In this document: piece after piece, positions 46,454 through 50,440 of the stretch
Numbering within the stretch: the stretch's first letter is position 1
How the letters are laid out: each line of letters opens with the position of its first letter
IMG/VR virus record: IMGVR_UViG_2721755728_000011
Source of the DNA: a virus
Lineage: Duplodnaviria > Heunggongvirae > Uroviricota > Caudoviricetes
Length of the DNA stretch: 64,000 bases
Strand: one strand, 5' to 3'
The notes under the pieces: generated by a model
Told to the model about the DNA's origin: nothing
Databases searched by the model: none
The model's input: only the letters and a program-made list of their open reading frames with translations
Translations under genes and position numbers: made by a program

Positions 46454-46590
46454 AGGTGAGCCGTGTAGTTGAAGGTTTTTACGTCAGATTCTTTTGGGAT
46501 TGGCTTGCGTTTATTTCTGGAGCGTTTCGTTGGAAGGTATTTGCAGTTTTCGCAGATGATGTCGGTGAAACTTCGTCGCTGTCGTCTCAT
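46408..46590 (-). CDS. ninE: NinE
   Basis: 60 aa [23 protein letters not shown]..., lambda NinE-like. Confidence 0.8.
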
Positions 46591-46948
46591 TCGTACCTCC
46601 TGTCGGTAAATCTGACACCCTGACCAATAGCCCAGGCTGTTGTGTACTCGATCAGACTTGCCATACGCTTCACGCTCATCTGCGCGCTGCTTTCGCGAAT
46701 GTTGACGTATTCGCCTTCAAGGCCGGGCAAAACATCAGCTTCCTGCTTTGTTGCCACTGCATGACCGCTTATCAACAAAACCTTCCATTGTTCTGGTTTT
46801 AACCATTTATCGCACCATTGAACCTGACGTGCGATATCCGCCAGCATCGCGTGAAATTTTGCGTTCTGGTAAAGGTTGCGCTTGTAGTCAGTAATGAACC
46901 GCCCCGGGAATCCTGGAGACTAAACTCCCTGAGAAAGAGGTAAACAGG

Positions 46949-47275
46949 ATGACTAAAAATACACGTTTTTCCCCCGAGGTCCGTCAACGGGCAGTTCGTA
47001 TGGTTCTGGAAAGTCAGGGCGAATATGACTCACAATGGGCGGCAATTTGTTCCATTGCCCCAAAGATTGGCTGTACACCAGAGACTCTGCGTGTGTGGGT
47101 TCGTCAGCATGAGCGGGATACCGGGAGTGGTGATGGTGGACTCACCACCGCTGAACGTCAGCGTCTGAAAGAGCTGGAACGTGAAAATCGTGAACTGCGC
47201 CGCAGTAACGATATCCTTCGCCAGGCTTCCGCTTATTTTGCGAAGGCGGAGTTCGACCGCCTCTGGAAAAAATAA
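46949..47275 (+). CDS. IS629 transposase OrfA
   Basis: 108 aa [30 protein letters not shown]..., HTH plus leucine zipper. Confidence 0.9.
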
Positions 47276-48162
47276 TGCCGCTGCTGGATAAGCTGCGTGA
47301 GCAGTACGGGGTCGGACCGGTATGCAGTGAACTGCATATTGCCCCGTCAACGTATTACCACTGTCAGCAACAGCGACATCATCCTGATAAACGCAGTGCC
47401 CGTGCTCAGCGCGATGACTGGCTGAAGAGAGAGATACAGCGCGTATACGATGAAAATCATCAGGTGTACGGTGTGCGTAAAGTCTGGCGCCAGTTGTTAC
47501 GCGAAGGTATCAGGGTGGCCAGATGTACAGTGGCGCGCCTCATGGCGGTTATGGGACTTGCCGGTGTTCTCCGGGGTAAAAAGGTCCGTACTACCGTCAG
47601 CCGGAAAGCCATTACCGCAGGCGACCGCGTAAACCGTCAGTTCGTGGCAGAACGTCCTGACCAGCTGTGGGTGGCTGATTTTACTTACGTCAGCACATGG
47701 CAGGGCTTCGTCTATGTGGCGTTCATCATTGATGTGTTTGCCGGATGTATCGTGGGGTGGCGAGTCTCATCGTCTATGGAAACGACATTCGTGCTGGATG
47801 CACTGGAGCAGGCGTTGTGGGCCCGTCGGCCGTCCGGCACAGTCCATCACAGTGATAAAGGTTCTCAGTATGTATCACTGGCCTATACGGAGCGACTAAA
47901 AGAAGCAAAACTGCTGGCATCAACAGGGAGTACAGGTGACTCGTATGACAACGCGATGGCGGAGAGCATCAATGGTCTTTACAAAGCGGAGGTAATACAC
48001 CGTAAGAGCTGGAAAAACCGTGCAGAAGTGGAACTGGCCACACTCACGTGGGTGGACTGGTATAACAATCGACGATTGCTGGGAAGGCTGGGTCATATCC
48101 CTCCGGCAGAAGCAGAAAAAGCTTATTATGCTTCCATCAGAAACGATGATCTGGCAGCCTGA
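47275..48162 (+). CDS. IS629 transposase OrfB (DDE catalytic domain)
   Basis: 295 aa; A-rich frameshift window at the orfA/orfB overlap. Confidence 0.9.
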   Translation: MPLLDKLREQYGVGPVCSELHIAPSTYYHCQQQRHHPDKRSARAQRDDWLKREIQRVYDENHQVYGVRKVWRQLLREGIRVARCTVARLMAVMGLAGVLRGKKVRTTVSRKAITAGDRVNRQFVAERPDQLWVADFTYVSTWQGFVYVAFIIDVFAGCIVGWRVSSSMETTFVLDALEQALWARRPSGTVHHSDKGSQYVSLAYTERLKEAKLLASTGSTGDSYDNAMAESINGLYKAEVIHRKSWKNRAEVELATLTWVDWYNNRRLLGRLGHIPPAEAEKAYYASIRNDDLAA

Positions 48163-48322
48163 GTTCACAGATAAAACACTCTCCAGGAAAACCGGGGCGG
48201 TTCAGTAATGCGGATGGTGACTGGCTTGTCTTTATCGAGTGGTGTTGCGAGGATGGCATTTATTGCAGCTTGCTGTTGTTGCTTAGTTCGGAGGAAGATT
48301 GTTTGCTTCACTGAATACTCCT

Positions 48323-48514
48323 TTATTTTTTATGCCTGTAACCCCATTCTTCCAGCAACCTTGCGGCGTACCACCCAAGAAACAAAGGAAAGAACATTAC
48401 AATGAGATATTCCCCGCCACGGTCAATGTTCGAAATTGACCAGATTACGATGTAACCAGTGTAGGACAGGAATATTACAAACCCCAAAAAGCTACTTCGT
48501 CGACTCATGCTCAC
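48323..48514 (-). CDS. Hypothetical small membrane protein (63 aa)
   Basis: Two hydrophobic segments; last of three co-oriented small ORFs between ren and ninB. Confidence 0.4.
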   Translation of the reverse strand: MSMSRRSSFLGFVIFLSYTGYIVIWSISNIDRGGEYLIVMFFPLFLGWYAARLLEEWGYRHKK

Positions 48515-48831
48515 TCCTTCACTTTGATTCCAGCAGCGCGGATGTTTTCCTCATAAGCATCCATTGCATCACCGAAGCCATTGGAATAATCAACAGTAAA
48601 CCCTTTGGCTAATGCTTCTCTGCTGTCGATAAACTTTGGCGCGGTTATTTCAATAGCTGATCGCGATGCCTGCCACGTTTGCCAGTGGCCTTGAACATCG
48701 TCCATCACGTATTGACCACCAATATTACCGCTGCCAATTTCATGGTGATTTTCAGGGTAACGGATAAGGTCTGAGGATTCGCCTCCACGTCGCAACCAAC
48801 TTTCTTCAAACTTCTTTCTTGATTCGTCCAT
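48511..48831 (-). CDS. Hypothetical protein (106 aa)
   Basis: Soluble ORF overlapping the downstream ORF by 4 nt. Confidence 0.45.
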   Translation of the reverse strand: MDESRKKFEESWLRRGGESSDLIRYPENHHEIGSGNIGGQYVMDDVQGHWQTWQASRSAIEITAPKFIDSREALAKGFTVDYSNGFGDAMDAYEENIRAAGIKVKE

Positions 48832-48848
48832 CGATACTTACCCTCAGT

Positions 48849-49055
48849 TCAACTCACAAAACGCCACGCCATTTTTGCTACAGCGACAGGCGCAACACCG
48901 ATAATCACCCACAGGAGAATGCTACCGAAAATCACACCCGCCAGGTCTTTACCTTCGCCTACCAACCGGACAAAACTGCTGGCAACCACAATGAACGTCG
49001 CCACCATCCACATGGCACCGAGAATCCTCAATGCAGAAAAAATCAACTCAACCAC
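48849..49055 (-). CDS. Hypothetical small membrane protein (68 aa)
   Basis: Two TM-like segments; follows tR2-like terminator. Confidence 0.4.
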   Translation of the reverse strand: MVELIFSALRILGAMWMVATFIVVASSFVRLVGEGKDLAGVIFGSILLWVIIGVAPVAVAKMAWRFVS

Positions 49056-49070
49056 GATTTACTCTCCCCC

Positions 49071-49102
49071 AAATAAAAAGGCCTGCGATTACCAGCAGGC
49101 CT
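49071..49102 (-). terminator. tR2-like intrinsic terminator downstream of ren
   Basis: 8-bp stem aggcctgc/gcaggcct with T-run on minus strand. Confidence 0.5.
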
Positions 49103-49182
49103 GTTATTAGCTCAGTGATGTAGATGGTTGAACCGCCCCGGAAATCCTGGAGACTAAACTCCCTGAGAAAGAGGTAAACAGG

Positions 49183-49509
49183 ATGACTAAAAATACTCGT
49201 TTTTCCCCCGAAGTCCGTCAGCGGGCGATTCGTATGGTTCTGGAAAGTCAGGATGAATATGACTCACAGTGGGCGGCAATTTGTTCCATTGCCCCAAAGA
49301 TTGGCTGTACGCCGGAGACTCTGCGTGTCTGGGTTCGCCAGCATGAGCGGGATACCGGGAGTGGTGATGGTGGACTCACCACCGCTGAACGTCAGCGTCT
49401 GAAAGAGCTGGAACGTGAAAATCGTGAACTGCGCCGCAGTAACGATATCCTTCGCCAGGCTTCCGCTTATTTTGCGAAGGCGGAGTTCGACCGCCTCTGG
49501 AAAAAATAA
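49183..49509 (+). CDS. IS629 transposase OrfA (copy 2)
   Basis: 108 aa, one substitution relative to copy 1. Confidence 0.9.
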
Positions 49510-50396
49510 TGCCACTGCTGGATAAGCTGCGTGAGCAGTACGGGGTCGGACCGGTATGCAGCGAACTGCATATTGCCCCGTCAACGTATTACCATTGTCA
49601 GCAACAGCGACATCATCCGGATAAACGCAGTGCCCGTGCGCAGCACGATGACTGGCTGAAGAAAGAGATACAGCGCGTATACGATGAAAATCACCAGGTA
49701 TACGGTGTGCGTAAAGTCTGGCGTCAGTTGTTACGGGAAGGTATCAGAGTGGCCAGATGCACTGTGGCACGTCTCATGGCAGTTATGGGACTTGCCGGTG
49801 TTCTCCGGGGTAAAAAGGTCCGCACTACCGTCAGCCGGAAAGCCGTTGCCGCATGCGACCGCGTAAACCGTCAGTTCGTGGCAGAACGTCCAGACCAGTT
49901 GTGGGTGGCTGATTTTACCTGGGTAAGCACATGGCAGGGCTTCGTTTATGTGGCGTTCATCATTGATGTGTTCGCCGGATACATCGTGGGATGGCAGGTC
50001 TCATCATCCATGGAAACAACATTCGTGCTGGATGCACTGGAGCAGGCGTTGTGGGCCCGTCGGCCGTCCGGCACAATCCATCACAGTGATAAAGGTTCTC
50101 AGTATGTATCGCTGGCCTACACGCAGCGGCTTAAGGAAGCCGGATTACTGGCATCAACAGGGAGTACTGGCGACTCGTATGACAACGCGATGGCTGAGAG
50201 CATCAATGGTCTTTACAAAGCGGAGGTAATACACCGTAAGAGCTGGAAAAACCGGACAGAAGTGGAACTGGCCACACTAACGTGGGTGGACTGGTATAAC
50301 AATCGACGATTGCTGGAAAGGCTGGGCCATATTCCTCCGGCAGAAGCAGAAAAAGCTTATTATGCTTCCATCGGAAATAATGATCTGGCAGCCTGA
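49509..50396 (+). CDS. IS629 transposase OrfB (copy 2)
   Basis: 295 aa, DDE transposase. Confidence 0.9.
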   Translation: MPLLDKLREQYGVGPVCSELHIAPSTYYHCQQQRHHPDKRSARAQHDDWLKKEIQRVYDENHQVYGVRKVWRQLLREGIRVARCTVARLMAVMGLAGVLRGKKVRTTVSRKAVAACDRVNRQFVAERPDQLWVADFTWVSTWQGFVYVAFIIDVFAGYIVGWQVSSSMETTFVLDALEQALWARRPSGTIHHSDKGSQYVSLAYTQRLKEAGLLASTGSTGDSYDNAMAESINGLYKAEVIHRKSWKNRTEVELATLTWVDWYNNRRLLERLGHIPPAEAEKAYYASIGNNDLAA

Positions 50397-50440
50397 GTTC
50401 ACAGATAAAACACTCTCCAGGAAACCCGGGGCGGTTCAGG

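Follow-up and report, generated by a model that had tools for sequence, protein, structure and literature searches.

IS629 and its isoforms IS1203/IS1203v and IS3411 are insertion sequences (IS) of Shigella and of enterohemorrhagic Escherichia coli (EHEC) O157, O26, O111 and O145. Their target duplications measure 3-4 bp, 62% of the IS629 copies in O157 sit in prophages, and the sub-types in O157 and O55 differ by 4-5% (PMC3271280). In O157:H7, the prophages Sp1, Sp2, Sp4, Sp5 and others carry IS629 in lambdoid DNA at sites that vary among close relatives and are bordered by short duplications, and these insertions serve as strain markers (PMC3271280); the organization and mechanism of IS629/IS1203v are described in a review of IEE (bioRxiv 10.1101/2023.06.07.543989). 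Here we analyze two IS629-group copies in a 64,000-nt stretch of DNA (the window) from a virus of the Caudoviricetes (IMG/VR record IMGVR_UViG_2721755728_000011). An earlier reading of these letters (the original prediction) had described them as two independent insertions into the nin region, one of them disrupting ninB. We conclude with very high confidence that two IS629-group elements of the IS3 family entered the early-right (replication/nin) region of a lambda-like prophage by independent transposition events.

The locus resembles the described cases closely. The two copies have the same length, terminal repeats, -1 frameshift, rve transposase, short duplications and prophage location as the known isoforms, and like the O157:H7 insertions they lie in lambdoid DNA at sites that vary among close relatives. 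In contrast to the O157:H7 Sp cases, however, one prophage here holds two sub-types within 3.5 kb, and the background is a non-O157 cattle strain (of the type of E. coli strain C3, see below); neither copy is close to the O157 copy called “IS1203 family” or to the copies on Shigella plasmid pCP301 (94.3-96.0% identity). Other relatives carry IS629-group copies elsewhere in the same region: in E. coli UTAK-6 and in O157:H7 strain 2571 a copy interrupts the replication gene O (the position differs between the two strains), and in O26:H11 strain 11368 a copy lies between ninE and ninF. Because these insertion points differ between relatives, they represent independent events, and the replication/nin region appears to be an often-hit or well-tolerated IS target. 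Overall, lambdoid prophages of EHEC and related E. coli are well known to carry IS629-group insertions, and the present pair has little importance beyond strain typing. It may be of modest use as a specific marker of the C3 lineage, as a clean textbook example in which natural empty sites prove that the insertions were independent, and as a case of two IS629 sub-lineages coexisting in one strain, one of them common to its plasmid.

Two IS copies and their empty sites

A repeat finder and direct reading of the letters placed both copies on the plus strand, each 1310 bp long, with 924 bp between them (Table 1), in agreement with the original prediction of two direct-orientation copies about 925 bp apart. 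Position 46587, where that prediction had begun the region, is the end of the ninB stop codon, and no IS boundary lies there. The termini of both copies read TGAACCGCCCCGG...TCCTGGAGA, with a TG start and a CA end, and the terminal inverted repeats of each copy are 25 bp long and imperfect (22 of 25 positions match), beginning with TGAACCGCCCCGG.

Since short matches flanking an element can occur by chance, we sought natural empty sites. E. coli UTAK-6 carries neither IS in its stretch of ninE, ninB, small open reading frames (ORFs; two of the three are annotated there), ren and P, and the 40-mers flanking each copy in the window overlap in that genome by exactly 4 nt at the copy 1 site and by exactly 3 nt at the copy 2 site. 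The copy 2 site is also empty in O26:H11 strain 11368. Deleting the two elements in silico, each together with one of its two target repeats, then gave an IS-free reconstruction of 1874 nt. This reconstruction is present as a single piece at 100.0% identity in the complete genomes 13E0767, JB2 and OkiPb01675, and at 99.8% in UTAK-6. Comparison with related genomes thus yields IS-free alleles that match the reconstruction, which means that the IS ends are base-exact and that the duplications ascribed to each copy, GTAA for copy 1 and GGT for copy 2, are real.

Our genome searches covered 5426 complete E. coli genomes, and one of them, that of strain C3 from a cow, carries the double insertion. 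The C3 allele is public and annotated as IS3-family transposases flanking NinB pseudogene fragments; the double insertion is therefore already known, real but ordinary. The window from 24762 to 64000 is colinear with the C3 prophage at 99.9% identity or more; in C3 the genes torS and torT flank this prophage, whose cargo includes espJ and an nleG-family gene. Copy 1 is identical (100%) to the same insertion in C3. Copy 2 of C3 is without 19 nt (window 50146-50164), lost between TACTGG direct repeats, and is marked as frameshifted by the PGAP annotation; the window copy keeps these 19 nt, so the window derives from a strain closely related to C3, and the C3 record is not its source. The two prophages differ further by single-base insertions or deletions in P (50906) and near 57480.

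An independent sequencing run also contains one of the junctions: Logan contig SRR14865647_378 begins with 29 nt of the end of copy 1, followed by TTAC and ninB. We looked up the 86-aa ORF that encodes the NinB C-terminus, and its matches were mostly short contigs or IS-free alleles in which ninB is damaged in other ways; this contig alone among them carries the copy 1 junction. No single-insertion allele was found among the genomes with at least 80% of the IS-free sequence.

Sub-lineages, transposase genes and alternative origins

Both copies have the organization of the IS629 group, namely a length of 1310 bp, repeats of about 25 bp, an orfA/orfB frameshift layout and a duplication of 3-4 bp. 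Each encodes an OrfA of 108 aa with a Pfam HTH_Tnp_1 domain and, in the -1 frame, an OrfB of 295 aa with Pfam HTH_21 and rve (DDE core) domains. Both have an A6 run where orfA ends and, after it, a full-length ALIL frameshift pseudoknot (Rfam RF01497; 120 bits in each). A conceptual -1 fusion, possible in either copy, gives an OrfAB of 404 aa that covers the NCBIfam IS3 transposase model over positions 1-369 of 369, at 362-364 bits (cutoff 160). With terminal repeats, orfA and orfB, A6 site and pseudoknot all intact, both copies look functional as far as sequence can tell. Slippage on the A6 run together with the ALIL pseudoknot would yield the 404-aa OrfAB DDE transposase, which would in turn support copy-out-paste-in transposition.

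Under the ISfinder rule, isoforms share a DNA identity above about 90% with the reference. The IS629 copies of S. flexneri pCP301, annotated as such and used here with other proxies in place of the ISfinder reference sequence, are 94.3-95.3% identical to our two copies (copy 1, 94.3-94.8%; copy 2, 95.0-95.3%). Assignment of both copies to the IS629 group is supported indirectly, by their identity to copies that others have annotated as IS629. Copy 1 is 99.8% identical to the annotated IS629 on pO145_112648_1 (copy 2, 94.3%) and has an exact (100%) match on C3 plasmid A; it is a common form, with matches of at least 99% identity in 194 plasmids. Copy 2 agrees at 100% with the IS that interrupts the O gene of UTAK-6 (copy 1, 94.3%) and at 99.4% with the copy of O26:H11 11368 (copy 1, 93.7%). 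The O157:H7 copy that PGAP calls “IS1203 family” is 95.4% identical to copy 1 and 96.0% to copy 2. By these values, copy 2 is an O26:H11-type IS629, corresponding to sub-type III of PMC3271280, and copy 1 falls outside the three lineages compared (the O157 “IS1203 family” copy, the Shigella pCP301 copies and the O26:H11 copy).

Compared with each other, the two copies differ by 75 substitutions over 1310 positions with no insertions or deletions, giving 94.3% identity (5.7% divergence). These nucleotide differences translate into just 17 amino-acid changes, and the longest identical run that the copies share is 175 bp. The copies belong to different, functionally conserved IS629 sub-lineages, which refines the first reading of the locus, and a divergence of 5.7% between the sub-lineages makes the case for independent insertion stronger. 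The copies come from two different donor lineages, with copy 1 identical to one on the IncF plasmid of strain C3.

Other origins of the pair can be weighed against these data. The closeness and direct orientation of the copies would suit a composite transposon, in which both IS and the 924 bp between them arrived as a unit. The outer flanks are unlike, however, with GTAA on the left and GGT on the right, and each IS has its own duplication, present just once in the empty sites. Moreover, the 924-bp interval is contiguous with both flanks in IS-free alleles, at 100% identity. The interval therefore predates the insertions and the elements inserted separately, as the original prediction had argued, leaving an arrival as a composite transposon with next to no probability. 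IS elements frequently reinsert nearby, and the copies share orientation and length, so that one might be a recent short-range hop of the other within the prophage; but they are separated by 75 substitutions, and their closest matches lie in unlike lineages (the UTAK-6 and O26 copies for copy 2, the C3 plasmid and pO145 copies for copy 1). We consider such a local origin extremely improbable.

Independent insertion could also be mimicked by an assembly artefact, in which IS copies were misplaced in a repeat-rich prophage. The window does contain two inverted joins (6955/6956 and ~24762) that are found in no complete genome and are likely assembly errors, and this speaks for an artefact; the IS locus, however, lies inside the 39-kb stretch that is colinear with C3. 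Each IS is bordered by unique phage sequence and an exact duplication, the copies are distinguishable by sequence, the separate C3 assembly shows the same arrangement with its own 19-nt difference, and the copy 1 junction recurs at the end of a short-read contig from an independent run. Taken together, these observations make an artefact very improbable. No evidence contradicting two independent insertions was met in this analysis.

Effects on ninB, ren and the interval between the copies

The coordinates of the two copies and of the genes around them are collected in Table 1.

Table 1. Features of the IS-bearing part of the prophage, in window coordinates
Feature	Position	Strand	Remarks
ninE, intact, 60 aa	46408-46590	-	Pfam NinE 1-58/58, E 4.9e-41; downstream neighbor of ninB
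ninB 3' fragment, 308 nt including stop codon	46587-46894	-	joins 48209-48311 into a 136-aa NinB
Left GTAA duplication, copy 1	46891-46894		4 bp; single GTAA in empty sites (UTAK-6 and three other genomes)
Copy 1, assigned to the IS629 group	46895-48204	+	left inverted repeat 46895-46919, right inverted repeat 48180-48204
Copy 1 coding parts	orfA 46949-47275; orfB 47275-48162	+	A6 slippery run 47267-47272
Copy 1 ALIL pseudoknot	47230-47346		Rfam RF01497
Right GTAA duplication, copy 1	48205-48208		4 bp
ninB 5' fragment	48205-48311	-	GTG start at 48311; pseudogene fragment in C3
Three small phage ORFs (63, 106, 68 aa)	48323-49055	-	between the IS copies
Predicted intrinsic terminator (8-pair stem, T-run)	49069-49102	-	lambda tR2 counterpart
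Left GGT duplication, copy 2	49126-49128		3 bp
Copy 2, assigned to the IS629 group (O26:H11 type)	49129-50438	+	left inverted repeat 49129-49153, right inverted repeat 50414-50438
Copy 2 coding parts	orfA 49183-49509; orfB 49509-50396	+	
Copy 2 ALIL pseudoknot	49464-49580		Rfam RF01497
Right GGT duplication, copy 2	50439-50441		3 bp; includes the final base of the ren stop codon
ren, intact, 96 aa	50441-50731	-	95/96 identical to lambda Ren

Copy 1 interrupts ninB after codon 36. Removal of the element and one GTAA restores an in-frame ninB, as had been predicted; the restored protein of 136 aa covers positions 2-131 of 131 of the Pfam NinB family (PF05772, E 4.9e-53) and is 37% identical to lambda NinB. 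On entering codon 36, copy 1 generated the GTAA duplication and left the gene as two pseudogene fragments, and PGAP calls the corresponding pieces of C3 a NinB pseudogene. In the window the 5' fragment now reads into the end of the IS as a 48-aa ORF (48165-48311). NinB/Orf is dispensable for lambda growth, and loss of NinB, a RecFOR-like recombination mediator, would be expected to have little or only a mild phenotype. The small ORFs between the IS copies include matches to PHROG 343 and PHROG 1165, both of unknown function; the 63-aa ORF had no PHROG match, and none of the three had a Pfam match.

A different ninB lesion occurs in GCA_900195355.1 and GCA_900195665.1, where a 4-nt deletion changes CATTACTGACTACAAG to CATTACTACAAG at the equivalent of window ~46887-46894. 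This deletion abuts the exact target site of copy 1. It could have arisen by slippage in the ACTGACTA near-repeat, or it could be the scar of an imprecise IS excision.

Just 2 nt separate copy 2 from the ren stop codon (50441-50443, minus strand), and its insertion at this point of the ren-tR2 spacer duplicated GGT. On its other side, 26 nt away, a terminator scan gave a match at 49102-49079 on the minus strand, and the terminator-bearing stretch shares 65 of 66 nt with the ren-ninB spacer of lambda. We take this hairpin and T-run after ren to be the counterpart of lambda tR2. Both the scan and the identity to lambda point to a tR2-like element at which transcription is predicted to terminate, and the placement of copy 2 just past the ren stop and ahead of this terminator, proposed originally, holds in position and in lambda identity alike. 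The insertion leaves ren and the terminator intact, 1.3 kb further apart.

Both IS copies point against the direction of phage pR transcription. The prophage contains N-like and Q-like antiterminators, and N-dependent antitermination would let pR transcription cross the insertions to Q. A promoter scan found no promoter-like site in 46300-50800, and an IS-created promoter is thus unsupported. Elsewhere in the prophage, the lambda cIII thermoregulator RNA element gives a full-length match at 56847-56905 on the plus strand (Rfam RF01804, 88.5 bits), which fits a lambda-type pL operon.

The original prediction had further suggested that direct repeats this close could delete the segment between them. 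Such a deletion is possible in principle, given the 175-bp identical run, but the proposal is weakened as far as ready recombination is concerned: a divergence of 5.7% should lower recombination, and no product was detected. For this search we built the expected deletion sequence of 2110 nt, consisting of the ninB 3' flank, one IS and the ren flank, and found no deletion product in the 5426 complete genomes. Full-coverage matches to the query did occur, all of them in at least three pieces spread over more than 3 kb, hence none is a true deletion product. The lambda nin5 deletion takes out tR2 and the nin genes that lie between P and Q. A crossover of the two IS would likewise remove tR2 and part of the nin region; it would differ from nin5 in that only tR2, the three small ORFs and the ninB 5' end would be lost, with one IS remaining. 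IEE-dependent excision is another possible route of loss (bioRxiv 10.1101/2023.06.07.543989).

More speculatively, and in our estimate improbably, the pair could have gained a function of its own. Either the intact direct copies would act as a new compound transposon carrying tR2, the three small ORFs and the ninB 5' end, or the antisense insertions, lying between pR and Q, would damp the expression of late genes and help to lock the espJ/nleG prophage into the chromosome.

Window joins and other open reading frames

The two joins divide the window into parts that match separate places in the C3 chromosome: 1-6955 matches at 2.96 Mb, 6956-24696 at 0.28 Mb (no mismatches in 17,741 nt; a prophage at the argU tRNA site), and 24762-64000 at 4.6 Mb. 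The join at 6955/6956 brings together two DUF968 genes by their 3' halves, which form arms of 395 nt (6560-6954 and 6957-7351) that are 95% complementary across a 2-nt spacer. The join at ~24762 brings together two tape-measure genes by their 5' halves, with arms at 23344-24425 and 25050-26131, and an ORF at 23419-25143 that crosses this join has no counterpart on record. Both joins are back to back, inverted and inside homologous genes, with breakpoints within 2 nt at the first and about 67 nt apart at the second. Beyond the first join, two C3 prophages become about 99% identical, a situation in which assemblies tend to break, and a deletion between the joined loci would cost about 1 Mb of chromosome. 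None of the 5426 complete genomes spans either join. Since homologous recombination cannot make such joins and no genome spans them, mis-joins or concatenated contigs seem likely, and the joins probably reflect mis-assembly or contig concatenation in the source.

Two further loci of the prophage carry ORFs outside the lambda-like core. A 590-aa ORF at 44132-45904 on the plus strand runs counter to the early operon and is flanked by ninE and a gene for an HNH endonuclease; it lies in a low-GC island (43700-46100; 27-37% GC compared with about 50% nearby). Searches of Pfam, NCBIfam, PADLOC and PDB sequences returned nothing for it, and its only match is PHROG 9230, of unknown function. The ORF is conserved at the same place in C3, in UTAK-6 and in an O157:H7 strain, and it looks like a phage “moron”. 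Where lambda has rexAB, this prophage has two plus-strand ORFs (53872-55178), flanked by the cI-like repressor gene and the N-like gene. One of them is a DUF1828 protein, and the pair gives weak PADLOC matches to the candidate defense system PDC-M24 (E 6e-7 and 1.5e-3), so that these ORFs may form a prophage-encoded defense pair.

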